A stretch of DNA of 64,000 bases from the IMG/VR virus record IMGVR_UViG_3300031555_003522, positions 32,001 through 96,000 of that record, one strand, 5' to 3'. The notes beneath the pieces were generated by a model. The model saw nothing but the letters and a program-made list of their open reading frames with translations. It was not told where the DNA came from and did no database searches. Position numbers and translations under genes: made by a program. Source of the DNA: a virus. Taxonomy: Duplodnaviria > Caudoviricetes. Below are positions 21,675-64,000 of the stretch, in pieces (the stretch's first letter is position 1; the number at the start of each line of letters is the position of its first letter).

Positions 21675-21678
21675 GCCA

Positions 21679-21686
21679 TATATTAT
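21679..21686 (+). promoter_or_regulatory. Early-type promoter motif TATATTAT (example)
   Basis: [T/C]ATATTAT recurs upstream of genes at 14972, 15929, 17871, 21679, 26095, 28480, 29283, 30668, 31481, 37724, 46888, 51526, 53053, 57567 (+) and 3569, 37693 (-); matches the early promoter type described for AR9/phiKZ. Confidence 0.7.
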
Positions 21687-21717
21687 ACTAGTGATCAATA
21701 TACAGGAGGTTAAAAAC

Positions 21718-24700
21718 ATGGGCCAACAAAAGGAATTAATGGAGGCTATGGAGTTCTTTGATCCCATACCATTTCAATATGTGGATGAATGGACACCTGG
21801 TCCGGACGATGAAGTCTTTAAAACTACTCGAGGCGCAATAATGTTAGATGTATCTGGTTTCTATGGGATGGAACCAAACCCACAGCTAGATGCATTTGTA
21901 TTGAGTGCTAAGAGGTCTTATAATAATCCTGATATGAGGACCCATACGTGCCATTACCTGAACTATTTTGAAAAATTCTATGATACTGATCACGAATTAC
22001 CAATGATTTATTGTAGATTAAAGTATCTCATTGATTGTGAACCTGCTTATAGTAGAGAGGCATTTATTTACGATCTTTATCGTTATATTATGCATGGATC
22101 TATCTATACAAAGGTTAGCTATATGAATGATGCTAACTACAGTCTATCATTAACCTATAAAAACGTGAAGAATCCTAATCTTCAATATAGTGATTGAGAA
22201 CAGTCACCTCGATATAGAAATATAGCGAGTAAAACTCCTCTAATTGCTGGAAACTCGTAAAGCTCATCTGCTACGGATATGGGAAACGAAAAAGGGAGTA
22301 CCTATCCTACAGAGACGAAAGTCAGAAACAAGTGATGAGATGATCTATGAGGAAACTCTAAGGGTTTAGCCATCAATCGACAACCAGCAGCCAAGCAAAT
22401 TAAGCTACGCAAACTAGCTTCGGATTATTTTAAACATATATTCGCCGGTATGATGGAATTGGTAAGACATAAGAGACTTAAAATCTCTCGGATTAAGTTC
22501 CGTACCGGTTCGAGTCCGGTTACCGGCACCAACCTATTTATAGATTCTGTGGTTATGAATCTATACCAAAATATAATCCACATACTTAACCAGCGTAGCC
22601 AAGTTGAAGGTTCAACGACTATCGAAAGGATAGTGCGACATGCTTGCAACGCATGTGCATGAATAACCGAGTAGAGTAGGGCTCGAGCGAGCTCGAAATG
22701 GGGAGCACCTTAGCGGATAAGTGCCGAAGGTGAAGATATAGTCTGGACTATGGGTAATGCCTATAGAAGTTCATTAAAGAACTGCGCACCAAAAGCGACG
22801 TGCGTGAACATCTCGAGGCATGGACGGATAATGATGAAAGTATCAGTCCTCATGAATATAATTATCCCTCTTATGTGTCATTTTATGTATGCGCGTAAGA
22901 TTGATAATACAACTGAGTTTATTCTCGCTGTCTACGACGTACTTATTGATCAGTATGACGTAGATATATACAATAAGCTGTACGAAACGGCTATCTCTAA
23001 TGTCTTACGTACAGCAAAAAGAAATCAAGCAATCTGGAATATGCAAGATATTCGTGGTATCAATACTAGTATCCACAGTCTACAGTCAGTACAGAATGTC
23101 TTGATAAATATAATGCCTTAACCAAACTAGGGCCATATGATAGCAATATCATATAGCAAACTCCTTTAATTGCTGGGAACTCTCACTGAGACAATCAGCA
23201 GCGAAGCCTCTATATGGGGAACGTTCAACGACTATCGAAAGGATAATGTAAGAGAAATACTTACATGAATAACCGAGTAGAGTAGGATTTATGTCCGAAA
23301 TGGGGAGCATCTTAAATATGGTAATAGTATTTGAGATGAAGATATAGTCTACTCCTTGCAGCGATGTAAGGTATACAGGAAATATAGGTACGATGGAAAT
23401 TTGTGACAAAGTTTCCTCATGTGGGAACACATGATCCAACAAGCTCTCTAATTGCTGGGAACTCTCACTGAGACAATCAGCAGCGAAGCCTCTATATGAG
23501 GAACGTTCAACGACTAGTCGAAAGACGTAGGTTCAAGCGAACCGAAATGGGAGCCACCCCAATGCTTAATAAATAAGTAATGGGTGAAGATATAGTCTGG
23601 TCTGCATGGCAACATGCAGTAGTTCATAAGAGAACAGTGTAAGATTAGCGATCTTACACGAACAACCGCTTGTCCATCTCAACTACAAGTCAATTTTACG
23701 AAATACTGGATTTCAGGTTCTGGATAATCATTTAAATGTCCACATACATGGTAACATGTATAGTAAAACTTCTTTAATTGCTGGAAGGCTAAACTTGATT
23801 AAGCAAGCATGCTAATCAGCAGCCAAGATGTTAATTTAATGATTCGGAGAGTATCTAAAATGATGACTTATGATTTTTCCAATTATTCTTATAATGGACT
23901 TCAAGTCCCTATAGAATTTTGGAAACCCATTACAGAAGAAATGGTTCCAAATGTGAAACCAATATACTTTGTAAGTAATATAGGAAATATTTATAATTCT
24001 GAGAATAATAAATATTCTATAATTACACTAAAAGCTGGTAGATATGTACAGGTTAGTCTTCGTACTAAAGATGGAGGACAAATCTGTATTCATATTCATA
24101 GATTAGTGGCCATGGCATTTCATGGAATGCCACCATCTAAAGACCATGAAGTAGATCATGTAAATTGCGATAAAACCTGTAATTTTGAGGGTAATCTTGA
24201 ATGGGTAACCCCAAAAGAAAATATAAATAGAGCTTGCATAAATAATTTGATTAGGATGGGTGAAGATAATTATAGAGCTATCTTAACCAATGATGATGTA
24301 ACTCATTTATGTGAATTACTAATGCAATCCATTCCTATCTCTAAAATATGTACTATGATGGAAGAGTATATCTATCCTAGAGTATATAGCAGCGGATTTA
24401 AAGGCTTAATAGGTCATATATTATGTGGAGATGTATGGAAAGAAATCGCAAGTCAATACAATTTTCCAGATTACGGTAGATTAAATTTTACCGATGATCA
24501 AGTTCGTATAATATGCGAATGCCTGAGCAGACAGGAACGATATATAGACATTCTTGATAAACTCGGTATGAGCAACTGTACAGAGCAGGAATTGAAGAGA
24601 CTAAAAGAGACTATATATAAGATCAAAGCAGGTAAGTCTTATGCTAATATTTCTTGTAATTACAATATTACAAGAAATAAGAGTTATATACTTACAAATA

Positions 24701-26029
24701 ATGAAGTTGATAGTATATGTAGGCAAGTAGCTCTTGGTATTGATAGAAAGGAAATAGTAAAATCCTTAGGCGAGCGTGGTAATGATAGAAAGGTAAAACA
24801 AGCAGCATATGATATATGTAATGGTATCTGCCATAAAAAAGAAGTCAATTATTATAGATCTCAATTAACAGAAGGTTCAACGACTATCGAAAAGGATCCT
24901 AATAAGGATTAACTGAGTAGAGTAGGGCTCAAGCGAGTTCGAAATGGGAAGGGTCCACTAAAGTGGATCGTGATATAGTCTCAACTGTATGGAAACATGC
25001 AGAAGTTCATAGGAGAACTGCATAGGAGTTGCGATCCTATGTGAAGGTAATGATAGAATATGAATTCAGCTTCGTATCTCTTTCCTCAAGTCGCAGAGAC
25101 GAGGATCTTAATTCTGAATTTGATAAATTTGAGTCAACTTAAGAAAAGGCTCCTTGTTATAGAAATATAGCAAGCAAACCTCTTGAATTGCTGGGAACTC
25201 TTAATGCCTATCTGCCTATATGGAGACGAAAGTCAGAAACAAGTGATGGGATGATCTATGGGGAAACCCTAATGATTTTGATAATAGATAATCAGCAGCG
25301 AAGCCTCTTATTGAGAGGAACGTTCAACGACTATCGAAAGGCATCTATAGGATGAACCGAGTAGAGTAGGATATTTATATATCCGAAGTGGGAGGTACCT
25401 GACCGAGTAATGTCGAAGGTAATGATATAGTCTACTGAATAAGAACAGCTTTTCTTAATAAAGCAGATGAGCAGCTTCTGGTTCAGCATAATTGCGCTGC
25501 TAGAGATGCTATGACTATGATTGAAATGATGTATGGTCCTTTTGATGAGGAAGAAATATTGTTCTATAAACATCGTCTTGCAGATGGTGGGAAATGTACA
25601 ATCAATGCGTTCCAGAGAGACCTCATCTTCAATCTATTCTTTAAGTATTTTGGTGATACTGCTAGCTTAAATGCTATTAACTTCGATGACTATGTCAAGT
25701 TAATTATGGCATCCAGAAGAATTCTTGAAGCTTCTGGAATGGTATTATTGCCCTATATTGTAAGCTCTAAGATTGTTCGTCTTGCTAGCCGCAAGAGTGT
25801 GAACAAGAAAGAGCTTACCAAATTAGAATCTTCTCCCCTATGGGAAAAGATCAAAGATAAGTATAAGAATGATAAAATTGAGAAACACATACTTGGTATG
25901 ATTGCTGTCATATTAAGTAGTGACTTCGAGATCATTGATCCGGAAGATCTGGAGCTTGATGGCCAAGCTATTACAGTGATTCCTGAACTGATCTGTGAAG
26001 AAATTCTCATGTATATTAGTCTTATCTAA
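21718..26029 (+). CDS. Non-virion RNAP sigma-like promoter-specificity subunit (AR9 gp226/phiKZ gp68 type), spliced: join(21718..22194,22816..23118,23380..23400,23669..23725,25053..25134,25449..26029), ~506 aa
   Basis: All five 5' splice sites end in U paired to G in a P1 helix, all 3' sites end in G, and the exons join in frame (NLQYSD|RHGRIMM, INIMP|KYRYDGN|LVHLNY, FQVLD|IEYEF, DKFE-S-FLNKAD). Motifs KRSYNN, SVLMNIIIPLMCHF, YNKLYE, EEILMYISLI match my recollection of AR9 gp226 (not verified by search). Confidence 0.8.
22195..22815 (+). mobile_element. Group I intron 1 (contains tRNA-Leu in P6 extension)
   Basis: P1 gtgat/gtcac; core motifs taattgctgg, accagcagccaag, gaaggttcaacgacta, gaagatatagtct; terminal G22815. 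Confidence 0.9.
22444..22531 (+). tRNA. trnL: tRNA-Leu (anticodon TAA), 88 nt, CCA encoded
   Basis: Acceptor GCCGGTA/TACCGGC-A-CCA; anticodon arm agaga-ctTAAaa-tctct; long variable arm; T-arm accgg-ttcgagt-ccggt. Confidence 0.93.
23119..23379 (+). mobile_element. Group I intron 2 (261 nt, no ORF)
   Basis: P1 gcct/gggc; taattgctggg, aatcagcagcgaag, gttcaacgacta, gaagatatagtct; terminal G23379. Confidence 0.88.
23401..23668 (+). mobile_element. Group I intron 3 (268 nt, no ORF)
   Basis: P1 ggaaat/gtttcc; P10 gacaa:ttgtc with 3' exon; same core motifs; terminal G23668. Confidence 0.9.
23726..25052 (+). mobile_element. Group I intron 4 carrying HNH homing endonuclease in P6
   Basis: P1 tggat/gtcca; aatcagcagccaag ... 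ORF ... gaaggttcaacgacta; gatatagtct; terminal G25052. Confidence 0.9.
23860..24912 (+). CDS. Intron-encoded NUMOD4/HNH homing endonuclease with three C-terminal helical repeats
   Basis: EFWKPI..YFVSNIGNI, HIHRLVAMAF..VDHVNCDKTCNFEGNLEWVTPKEN; repeats ILTNDDV/FTDDQV/ILTNNEV..IC; GGAG SD before ATG 23860; 3' end overlaps the intron core. Confidence 0.9.
   Translation: MMTYDFSNYSYNGLQVPIEFWKPITEEMVPNVKPIYFVSNIGNIYNSENNKYSIITLKAGRYVQVSLRTKDGGQICIHIHRLVAMAFHGMPPSKDHEVDHVNCDKTCNFEGNLEWVTPKENINRACINNLIRMGEDNYRAILTNDDVTHLCELLMQSIPISKICTMMEEYIYPRVYSSGFKGLIGHILCGDVWKEIASQYNFPDYGRLNFTDDQVRIICECLSRQERYIDILDKLGMSNCTEQELKRLKETIYKIKAGKSYANISCNYNITRNKSYILTNNEVDSICRQVALGIDRKEIVKSLGERGNDRKVKQAAYDICNGICHKKEVNYYRSQLTEGSTTIEKDPNKD
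25135..25448 (+). mobile_element. Group I intron 5 (314 nt, phase 1)
   Basis: P1 gagt/gctc; perfect 10-bp P10 ttaagaaaag:cttttcttaa with 3' exon; core motifs; terminal G25448 restores the frame of ORF 25511. Confidence 0.92.
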
Positions 26030-26628: not shown

Positions 26629-27597
26629 ATGATTTATTCTATTACCGAAGGCCAGCAGGCTGAAGAATATAAAGCTAGAAAGGCTAAAGAGGCTGAAGAA
26701 CATATTGCAAAAAATACAAGTAGATCTGAAACTGATTCTCTTGGAGATGGAATTATAAATTCACATTTTGTTGGGAATAAGACTAAAATACTTGATGATA
26801 AGAAAGGGCATTTTAAATTTAGCCATACGGATACTCGACGAAGAGAGATGGCTATGAATAAAGTAGTGGATGAAACTAAAAGAAGAAATGATAAAGCACT
26901 TCAAAATTTTACTCCTATAAATAATAGAAATGCGGATAATCTGCTTAGTGATAAATATTTTGGGGTTGCTGTTGATGCTGTAAATCGTCATATGCGGCGT
27001 CATCCTGATCAATATAAAGAATCTTTTTTACTTACAGAAGAAGATGCCGATGAATTCTTAGAATCTATCGGTGTAACTTTATATGAAGACTATGTTACTA
27101 TTGGAGAATGTTCCATTCCTGGAGTGGAAGCTGAAGCTATTCTGGAAGAGCACGGTATCTTCTTATGTGAAGAAGGTATCATTATCGAAGGTGAACAGGC
27201 TGAAGAATATAAGGCTAGAAAAGCAAAAGAAAAAGAAGATGCTAAGCAAGCTGATGATGATCGTTTTATGAGGAGATACATGCCTAGAATAGATGAAAAA
27301 GGACGTCAACATAACGATCCCGGAGATAAGACTATTGGATATGGGCATGGTAGTGATGATTTCGATAGAGCTATGAAAGCACACGATATGGCTAATCGCG
27401 AATATAATAGGCGGACCATTGCTATGATGAATTCTAAGTTACGTGGTGATGATAAACAAACTGTTCGACAAAAAGAAAAAGAATGGCTGAAATCTGTTGG
27501 TGAGACACCTAGAGATGCTGCTAATCGTCATATGCGTCGTCATCCTAAACAGTATAAAGAATCTTGTGGTATTTTCTCTAATGTAGCATTTATCTAA
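26629..27597 (+). CDS. Late modular protein (two basic cargo modules), MIYSITE N-tag and ESCGIFSNVAFI C-tag; probable internal head protein
   Basis: Internal duplication EG[QE]QAEEYKARKAKE...A[VA]NRHMRRHP.QYKES; late promoter AACG-N6-TA 26592-26603. Confidence 0.75.
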   Translation: MIYSITEGQQAEEYKARKAKEAEEHIAKNTSRSETDSLGDGIINSHFVGNKTKILDDKKGHFKFSHTDTRRREMAMNKVVDETKRRNDKALQNFTPINNRNADNLLSDKYFGVAVDAVNRHMRRHPDQYKESFLLTEEDADEFLESIGVTLYEDYVTIGECSIPGVEAEAILEEHGIFLCEEGIIIEGEQAEEYKARKAKEKEDAKQADDDRFMRRYMPRIDEKGRQHNDPGDKTIGYGHGSDDFDRAMKAHDMANREYNRRTIAMMNSKLRGDDKQTVRQKEKEWLKSVGETPRDAANRHMRRHPKQYKESCGIFSNVAFI

Positions 27598-27732
27598 TTT
27601 ATATAAGGAGTGAGATAATTCTCACTCCTTATTTTATTTTCATTTGATAGTATAAAATGCCTATTTTAGACCACTTTTACCACAAAAAAAAAACGAAATA
27701 ATAATACTATACTCGAAAGTGAGGAAATTATA

Positions 27733-28434
27733 ATGGAAAGAATTATTCTTACTGAAGCCGATGCCGATGAATTCTTAGAATCTATTGGTGTCACTTTATA
27801 TGAAAAGGCTATGAATATTGGAGGAAATATTGTATTTGGAGTAGACGGCCAAGAGGCCCTTCAAGAATATGGTATCTTCTTATATGAAGATTATATTTTG
27901 GTTGAAGGTGAGCAAGCTGAGGCTTACAAAGCTAAAAAGGCTAAAGAAAAAGAAGAAGAATCTAAAAAATATGATAAATATGATAATGATAATTTTAAAG
28001 ATTCTGCCCCAAAATTTATGAAGGGTTCTAGAGCAAATAATAGTGTAGGAAATCAAGCTAGTTTAAAACAGATTGATATCAAGGATATTAAAGGGTCTAC
28101 TAAAAAATATAGCGATACTAGATCTAATGACAGTATTAGGCGGCAGTATGCTTCGGATATAGTAGAAAAAGATAGATTAAATAGAAACCCTCAATATAGC
28201 GGAAAAGGAATAACTATTAGAACTTCTGATGGTAAACCTAGTTCATGGACTTTAGAAAGAGATTATAGAAAAGGAGCAATCAATCAAAATCCTCTTTATG
28301 ATAAATATTTCGATGATAAAGATAAAAGAATAGCATATTTTGCAGCTAAAGATGCTGCAAATAGACATTTACGTAGGCATACTAAGACGGTAAAAGAATC
28401 TTGTGGTATCTTCTCTAATGTAGCTTTTATCTAA
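27733..28434 (+). CDS. Paralog of 26629..27597 (one cargo module, same C-tag)
   Basis: LTE.DADEFLESIGVTLYE, EGEQAEAYKAKKAKE, DAANRHLRRH, ESCGIFSNVAFI; same upstream element. Confidence 0.78.
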   Translation: MERIILTEADADEFLESIGVTLYEKAMNIGGNIVFGVDGQEALQEYGIFLYEDYILVEGEQAEAYKAKKAKEKEEESKKYDKYDNDNFKDSAPKFMKGSRANNSVGNQASLKQIDIKDIKGSTKKYSDTRSNDSIRRQYASDIVEKDRLNRNPQYSGKGITIRTSDGKPSSWTLERDYRKGAINQNPLYDKYFDDKDKRIAYFAAKDAANRHLRRHTKTVKESCGIFSNVAFI

Positions 28435-37748: not shown

Positions 37749-37825
37749 GGGCCCATCGCCTAGCTGGTTAAGGCCTTCTGCTCATAACAGAACCACCGCA
37801 AGTTCGAGTCTTGCTGGGCCCACCA
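37749..37825 (+). tRNA. tRNA with CAT anticodon, probably tRNA-Ile2 (lysidine type); elongator Met not excluded
   Basis: Acceptor GGGCCCA/TGGGCCC-A-CCA (G1-C72, so not initiator; C4-G69/C5-G68 as in TilS substrates); ttctg-ctCATaa-cagaa; T-arm gcaag-ttcgagt-cttgc. Confidence 0.9.
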
Positions 37826-63760: not shown

Positions 63761-64000
63761 ACCTAACGGTAATCACAGCTTGTATAGTAATATGCAAGTT
63801 CCCCGGGTTAACTGCTGGCAATCCCTAAAGCCTTAAGCACTACAACGTGATCTGAAAAGATGAGCGTGAATGTTACGAAAGTAGAAAAAAGCTTAAGGAT
63901 GGACTATGGTTAAATCCTAAGGTCTAACTCGACAAATGGGTCTTCAGCAGCCAATCACTTGTAAAATAGTGAAGGTTCAACGACTATCCCCTGGCAGGGG
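63760..64000 (+). mobile_element. Group I intron in helicase Walker A (truncated by window end; exact 5' splice site uncertain)
   Basis: P2 cttgtat-agtaat-atgcaag; ttaactgctgg; ttcagcagccaa; gaaggttcaacgacta. Confidence 0.85.

Follow-up and report, generated by a model that had tools for sequence, protein, structure and literature searches.

A sigma-like RNA polymerase subunit gene of a predicted jumbo phage divided by five group I introns, the first with a probably selected tRNA-Leu

The promoter-specificity subunit of the non-virion RNA polymerase (nvRNAP), known as gp226 in phage AR9 and gp68 in phage phiKZ (PMC9209446, PMC7598289), is encoded in one piece in AR9, PBS1, phiR1-37, BpSp and SA1, whereas the gene described here lies in six exons. 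It was found in a window of 64,000 nucleotides (nt) that corresponds to positions 32,001-96,000 of the IMG/VR record IMGVR_UViG_3300031555_003522; coordinates below are window positions unless marked otherwise. The gene resembles those of AR9 and phiKZ in sequence and fold over its full length and, like AR9 g226, follows an early AT-rich promoter element. We read the locus as an intact early sigma-subunit gene of a jumbo phage related to AR9 and phiKZ, invaded five times independently by homing introns, with a selected tRNA-Leu in intron 1, and we put the probability of this reading at roughly 0.8.

Multi-intron phage genes, intron-rich huge phages, HNH-bearing introns in jumbo-phage RNA polymerase (RNAP) genes and exon skipping have all been described. 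As cited in PMC10136302, three group I introns interrupt orf142 of phage Twort and a 23-nt exon flanked by two similar introns undergoes partial skipping; Bacillus phage SIOphi is a second exon-skipping case (PMC11878797). The present gene also has a short exon between highly similar introns (21 nt, with a 71-nt intron core that is 97% identical in introns 2 and 3), but it has five introns, encodes a transcription factor and carries tRNA cargo, and its skipping is a prediction from the sequence. Jug phages have 18.5 group I introns per genome and genes in up to four fragments (PMC12880540), and phiPA3 has an RNAP beta intron with the HNH gene product gp210 (PMC11620839). Here again, conserved genes of replication and transcription harbour many group I introns along with HNH endonucleases, but the two papers report no sigma-like subunit gene as intron host, no six-exon genes with exons of 7-21 nt and no intronic tRNAs.

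Cargo other than an endonuclease is known in group I introns from rps3 in the fungal mL2449 intron and from putative intron-encoded tRNAs of Ophiostomatales mitochondria (PMC7902536), and IStrons carry further foreign cargo (PMC3984707). In these cases, too, a peripheral loop houses a useful or foreign gene, but the Ophiostomatales tRNAs are annotations without structural or comparative analysis, unlike the phage copies considered here. We found no report of introns in gp226 or gp68 genes and none of a tRNA gene inside a phage or bacterial group I intron, which is weak evidence since most subscription papers lay outside the search. What is familiar is the opposite case of a tRNA interrupted by an intron, and the selected tRNA cargo is the part of this locus that would surprise a specialist.

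The six-exon gene and its product

A preliminary description of the locus, made from the sequence, had proposed a sigma-like nvRNAP subunit of about 506 amino acids (aa) encoded by six exons that join in frame, each junction being supported by a U-G P1 helix and a terminal G, with three microexons that open reading frame (ORF) callers do not see. The exon structure is borne out to the base: the joined exons make 1521 nt, or 506 aa and a stop, with intron phases of 0, 0, 0, 0 and 1. Exons and introns, all on the plus strand, are as follows.

21718..22194, plus strand: exon 1 (aa 1-159), 477 nt, from the joined-frame alignment
22195..22815, plus strand: intron 1, group I, 621 nt, phase 0; RF00028 51 bits; site shared with L001-L005 and L103
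22816..23118, plus strand: exon 2 (aa 160-260), 303 nt, from the joined-frame alignment; Ala at the gp226 V206 position
23119..23379, plus strand: intron 2, group I, 261 nt, phase 0; RF00028 96.6 bits; site shared with L005 and L103
23380..23400, plus strand: exon 3 (aa 261-267), 21 nt; loop between two sigma2-like helices, about gp226 236-242
23401..23668, plus strand: intron 3, group I, 268 nt, phase 0; RF00028 95 bits
23669..23725, plus strand: exon 4 (aa 268-286), 57 nt; one whole predicted helix, about gp226 243-261
23726..25052, plus strand: intron 4, group I, 1327 nt, phase 0; RF00028 in two halves (26.7 and 17 bits) around the HNH ORF
23860..24912, plus strand: ORF of 350 aa for a predicted NUMOD4-HNH homing endonuclease; occupies the intron 4 P6 loop and extends into the intron core
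25053..25134, plus strand: exon 5 (aa 287-313), 82 nt; sigma-finger-like linker
25135..25448, plus strand: intron 5, group I, 314 nt, phase 1; RF00028 60.1 bits
25449..26029, plus strand: exon 6 (aa 314-506 and stop), 581 nt; C-terminal domain

In all five introns the terminal U of the 5′ exon is paired to G in the predicted P1 hairpin, the last base is G and both P7 strands are canonical. Introns 1, 2, 3 and 5 exceed the gathering score of the Rfam family RF00028, and introns 3, 4 and 5 can form a P10 pairing with their own 3′ exon (5, 4 and 10 bp, respectively). The splice sites at the five junctions are thus visible in the sequence, and the introns would be removed by self-splicing. The ORF of intron 4, which has 367 aa if begun at an upstream ATG (23809), matches Pfam HNH_3 above the cut-off (42.8 bits), NUMOD4 weakly and below the cut-off, and PHROG 59; it is predicted to be a NUMOD4-HNH (I-HmuI-like) intron homing endonuclease with an intact motif. 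ORF calling divides the locus into pieces of 168, 123 and 172 aa and the HNH ORF, and the three microexons fall in none of them.

The preliminary description had suggested aligning the spliced protein with intronless homologs and with AR9 gp226 and phiKZ gp68. Exon 1 as a query retrieved 63 viral loci, which are redundant, and 80 metagenome loci, and 35 distinct intronless proteins among the viral loci served as the comparison set. The joined protein aligns with these 35 homologs with zero gaps at all five junctions, the best of them being that of locus L011 (53.6% identity over 500 aa, 2 gaps). Exons 2-6 form a single continuous frame in L001 (80.6% identical), exons 3-5 and the start of exon 6 are continuous in L103, and both loci are nearly letter-for-letter the same as the window across the microexons.

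A profile of 29 intronless homologs matches only one sequence in the PDB, 7s01_A (E 1.9e-28, positions 32-486), which is the 464-aa AR9 subunit found in the three holoenzyme entries. A structural model of the homolog L021 (predicted local distance difference test score, pLDDT, 85.6) has the two-domain fold with sigma2-like, finger and C-terminal parts and matches 7s01_A (E 1.5e-13), 7um0_A and 8que_B of phiKZ (E 3e-6), and L011 matches the one-piece genes of AR9, PBS1, phiR1-37, BpSp and SA1. With gp226 recovered by both sequence and fold and gp68 by fold, the sequence and model comparisons confirm the proposed identity of the gene as a promoter-specificity subunit of the gp226/gp68 type, the sigma-like fifth subunit of the nvRNAP. 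Pfam contains no family that matches the spliced protein, and exon 1 alone found no match in cultured phages, for which the intronless homolog L011 was needed. Nucleotidyltransferase and unnamed clusters suggested by ESM Atlas features with low shared-feature counts were dropped in favour of the gp226 profile and fold matches.

The residue of gp226 that reads uracil is V206 (PMC9209446). Ala231 of the window protein stands at this position, which is variable in the homologs, and ThyX is encoded in the same genome; Val206 and uracil DNA mark the uracil-reading subgroup of gp226 (AR9, PBS1, phiR1-37), to which the window protein does not appear to belong. Because of the alanine and of ThyX, recognition of uracil in the template strand is unlikely, and the phage is probably a thymine-DNA relative of AR9. 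From what is known of AR9 and phiKZ, the product would probably direct late transcription (PMC7598289). The preliminary description had made late transcription dependent on five splicing events; the need for five splicings to make the subunit is supported, and the dependence of late transcription on them is an extension from AR9 and phiKZ.

The gene is flanked by predicted expression signals.

21678..21693, plus strand: AR9-type early promoter element ATATATTAT-(6N)-G with predicted start G21693, a match to the AR9 consensus
21704..21709, plus strand: ribosome-binding site AGGAGG, the commonest upstream motif of the genome
26034..26063, plus strand: predicted hairpin resembling an intrinsic terminator

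The promoter element fits the 3′ nine bases and the spacing of the AR9 early consensus, which also stands before AR9 g226 (PMC5312081). Its 8-mer is enriched about 6-fold upstream of the ORFs of the genome, including those of two RNAP subunit genes, and a scan for sigma-70 promoters gave matches at chance level. Since an AR9-type early motif lies upstream, the sigma gene is probably early and transcribed by the virion polymerase. The genome (207,861 bp, 34% G+C, 84% complete) encodes split RNAP beta-type subunits (matched here to PHROGs 2986, 3295, 3015, 3148 and 2943; the full set would be eight), and its RNAP core genes, so far as they were found, showed no intron. Matches to metagenome-assembled genomes were scattered over unrelated taxa and indicated no host. 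On one phage contig there are two homologs of the sigma gene (L020, L057), the second being shorter (about 284 aa) and more divergent.

The tRNA-Leu of intron 1 and tRNA-shaped cargo in relatives

Intron 1 contains the following feature.

22444..22531, plus strand: intact tRNA-Leu(UAA) with a long variable arm, A73 and encoded CCA (ARAGORN; Rfam 54.8 bits)

The tRNA sits between the P6 strands, the slot that the HNH ORF occupies in intron 4, and two stems close it off within the P6 loop (fold z=-3.1). It has the cloverleaf, long variable arm, A73, CCA and leucine anticodon of a class II tRNA-Leu. It is the only elongator tRNA found in this 84%-complete genome, whose only other tRNA is a tRNA-Met(CAU) (window 37749-37825); the same pair of tRNAs occurs in L001-L003. 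In L001-L003, L004 and L103 the intron at the same site carries a tRNA-Leu with a UAG rather than a UAA anticodon. The window tRNA and its three same-site relatives share 55-73% identity, less than their intron cores (74-87%). Even so, 99% of the stem cells are paired across the five intronic leucine copies, and both sides have changed in 17 of the 24 pairs. Position 37 of these copies is A with UAA and G with UAG, the pattern of working tRNAs. From these comparisons the tRNA-Leu is most likely under selection, and it is predicted to be a decoding tRNA. Codon bias offers no special reason for it, since TTA makes up 24% of leucine codons, with little difference between early-type genes and the rest, and since the relatives have UAG in its place. 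Immediately upstream of the tRNA, an AACA resembling a late promoter was rejected as a candidate element, as it is not conserved in relatives.

Predicted tRNAs and tRNA mimics recur in the P6 endonuclease slot of related introns. L111 has a tRNA-Leu(UAG) in a different intron, after codon 281, and L141 (L141:987-2655) has four introns in its sigma gene, of which the last, near codon 321, carries a tandem tRNA-Gln(UUG) and tRNA-Lys(UUU) without encoded CCA and the first a T-arm-like remnant in a long hairpin. As a lead only, host anticodon nucleases, PrrC and RloC among them, are known to attack tRNAs of these glutamine and lysine types. In L005 (L005:6719-6766) the D and anticodon arms of the tRNA are gone, and the remaining mini-tRNA consists of the acceptor stem, the T arm with a compensated T-stem pair and ACCA, in an intron otherwise 96-97% identical to that of L103. 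The P6 loop of the intron after codon 383 (L005:10225-10390, L103:2090-2255) holds a tRNA-shaped element with an ACCA end and a long hairpin inserted in its anticodon arm. A RecA/UvsX-like gene (L223:2663-3042, also L225 and L232) contains a group I intron whose P6 loop carries a cargo that is tRNA-shaped, ends in CCA and escapes tRNA finders. Pattern scans for tRNAs in introns outside the sigma gene gave mostly chance hits or ordinary clusters, the real extras being L223, L225 and L232 and, weakly, L221 and L231. In the last two (L231:1401-1479, L221:11148-11310) a tRNA-Met(CAU)-like shape stands after the first P7 strand rather than in P6, with a weak Rfam score of 24 bits; the host gene of the L231 intron is dUTPase-like.

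These observations suggest how the locus could work. The virion polymerase would transcribe a precursor of about 4.4 kb from the AT-rich early promoter, each intron would splice itself out at the U·G pair and the terminal G, and the 506-aa product would steer late transcription as in AR9. The P6 loop, the usual seat of a homing endonuclease, could be a general cargo slot. Host RNase P and 3′ trimming would most likely release tRNA-Leu from the excised or still-folded intron 1, which would yield one tRNA per sigma transcript early in infection, and the likeliest benefit would be an extra or replacement tRNA at that stage. If the RNase P cut precedes splicing, it would break the precursor within a peripheral loop, and the stems on either side could keep the halves together as a two-piece ribozyme. 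The cargo would give the phage a use for intron 1 after the loss of its endonuclease, and a selected tRNA in a phage group I intron would be a concrete answer to how an intron persists once its endonuclease has gone. It also poses a conflict, as maturation of the tRNA must cut an RNA that has to splice for an essential protein.

Several points weigh against our reading. Introns 1 and 2 have no clear P10 pairing with their own 3′ exons, the fold was taken from the homolog L021 (48% identical) and not from the spliced protein of the window, and the covariation in the tRNA would also arise if intact tRNAs had repeatedly been swapped in from elsewhere. The L005 remnant and the codon-383 element are tRNA-shaped cargo that probably does not decode, which implies that decoding is not the sole thing selected.

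This last point leads to an alternative that we regard as rather unlikely, namely that the tRNA shape persists mainly as a signal for processing or control, with RNase P and 3′ nucleases cutting in the P6 loop. Splicing of intron 1 as a two-piece ribozyme, or its destruction after excision, would then link sigma output, and with it the early-to-late switch, to the host's tRNA processing or its tRNA-cutting defences. Retention in L005 of the acceptor stem, T arm, ACCA and compensated T-stem pair would fit such a role, as would the other CCA-ended cargoes that probably do not decode (codon 383 of L005 and L103; the RecA-like intron of L223, L225 and L232) and the long stems that flank the cargo. 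However, five copies retain a full anticodon arm, a leucine anticodon and leucine identity features, most sigma-gene introns carry no tRNA at all, and the remnants could simply be stages of decay. A broader proposal seems to us about as doubtful: the group I introns of this clade may have been domesticated as tRNA cassettes (Leu, Gln, Lys and CCA-ended mimics), with cutting by host tRNA enzymes or defences coupled to sigma splicing. If so, an intron would both supply a tRNA and gate the early-to-late switch.

It is less likely still that the tRNA is a neutral hitch-hiker, which arrived from a tRNA cluster together with an endonuclease cassette since lost and is now decaying. It does occupy the endonuclease slot, one decayed copy is known (L005) and, as loss of the endonuclease predicts, none of the introns was seen to combine an endonuclease with a tRNA. 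A decaying passenger is nevertheless hard to reconcile with near-perfect pairing despite 27-45% divergence, or with the presence of three tRNA types at three insertion sites.

Microexons and exon skipping

Skipping of exon 2, 3, 4 or 3 and 4 together would keep the frame, and skipping of exon 5 would lose it. The preliminary description considered skipping plausible with such short exons and suggested that in-frame skipping gives isoforms. The first part is reasonable for exon 3: the cores of introns 2 and 3 are nearly identical and intron 2 has no clear P10, as in Twort orf142, so that some skipping of exon 3 is likely, plausibly as an error. It could proceed through a hybrid core of introns 2 and 3 and would give a crippled protein, a cost rather than a programme. 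How tandem self-splicing introns avoid skipping is a question for which this locus is a natural test bed.

The second part, useful isoforms, is unsupported, and we consider programmed alternative splicing, in which skipping of exon 3, exon 4 or both would yield shorter sigma proteins that prefer different promoters or act as dominant-negative timers, to be quite improbable. In its favour are the preserved frame, the similar cores and lack of a clear P10 just mentioned, and documented skipping in SIOphi (PMC11878797) and Twort orf142 (cited in PMC10136302). Against it, the residues of exons 3 and 4 are present in every one of the 35 homologs (gap frequency 0) and build a loop and the whole next helix of the sigma2-like domain (residues 269-275 and 276-293 of the L021 model). 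They correspond to gp226 residues of about 236-261, which include S245, whose mutation weakens transcription from double-stranded DNA (PMC9209446). Phase 0 is uninformative on isoforms because it is equally dominant in single-intron relatives (8 of 12 distinct sites), where there is no exon to skip. In this genome's DNA polymerase gene, discussed below, skipping of either of two very short exons alone would shift the frame. Among the loci compared, the intron 3 site is occupied in no relative, the closest ones included, which marks the arrangement as a recent one that lacks conservation. The microexons are no more than the stretches left between adjacent insertion sites.

Intron crowding in the gene and in the genome

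Introns interrupt the sigma gene at 20 of the 63 viral loci (a redundant set), at about 16 distinct sites. Only junctions that agreed with breaks between high-scoring segment pairs or with whole-protein scoring were used, and the site counts are approximate; the reliable sites follow codons 159, 250, 260, 267, 281, 284, 286, 288, ~293, 302, 304, 306, 310, 313, 320 and 383. Most lie within codons 250-321, which by profile alignment correspond to the sigma2-like end (184-264) and finger (265-294) of gp226. Homing introns are expected to settle in the most constrained parts of genes, and the crowding fits homing introns because the sigma2-like end and finger are the most constrained part of this one. 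For annotation, this means that the sigma subunit is split, and invisible as such, in about one third of the sampled loci of a large uncultured clade.

The site of intron 4 displays, to judge from the sequences, the whole homing cycle: it holds the HNH ORF in the window, a different HNH (36% identical) in L005 and empty introns of about 335 nt without an ORF in L008, L106, L107 and L110. Five introns in the sigma gene are not unique to the window, as L005 also has five, at the partly different sites 159, 260, 286, 306 and 383. The independence of the insertions rests on the differing sites. That the gene is broken or misassembled from repeated intron sequences is very improbable: repeats common to the introns could confuse assembly, but the reading frame is unbroken, splice signals and P7 strands are canonical throughout, independently assembled contigs share the sites of introns 1, 2 and 4, and likeness among the five introns is confined to short motifs.

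The genome contains about 14 group I introns in five genes. One of these genes encodes a DNA polymerase (PHROG 2927; L212) at G000:C1:164577-167341 on the minus strand and has five group I introns of its own, which leave exons of just 13 and 7 nt within the conserved motif B; comparison with an intronless homolog (72% identical, 2 gaps) confirms this structure. Essential genes of this genome thus include exons as short as 7, 13 and 21 nt. Because introns are so many, five of them in the DNA polymerase gene, we regard the architecture as the outcome of a genome-wide burst of introns and not as a design of the sigma gene, whose five introns represent crowding in a homing-intron hot spot that is extreme yet can be explained.

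Some further observations concern these introns and their surroundings. ORFs with internal repeats such as 'EGEQAEEYKARKAKE' and 'AANRHMRRHP', for which no family match was found, lie at window 26629-28434. The first intron of the five-intron DNA polymerase gene has an insert of about 500 nt with a degraded-looking ORF. The gene for the topoisomerase II large subunit has two introns and the other DNA polymerase gene has one (G000:C1:106800-108430, 142950-143935; L210, L211), and the ORF in the latter intron has its own early-promoter-like motif, like AR9 g190. Further tandem group I introns of relatives stand upstream of the sigma-like gene at a distance of a few kb (L004:261-759; L112 and L127, about 1200-1750; L108, 1-1850). 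In a DnaB-like helicase gene (window 63764-64000; G000:C1:95764-98600; L209), a group I intron is directly followed by a 400-aa ORF of a transposase family (PHROG 506), possibly an IStron-like composite.

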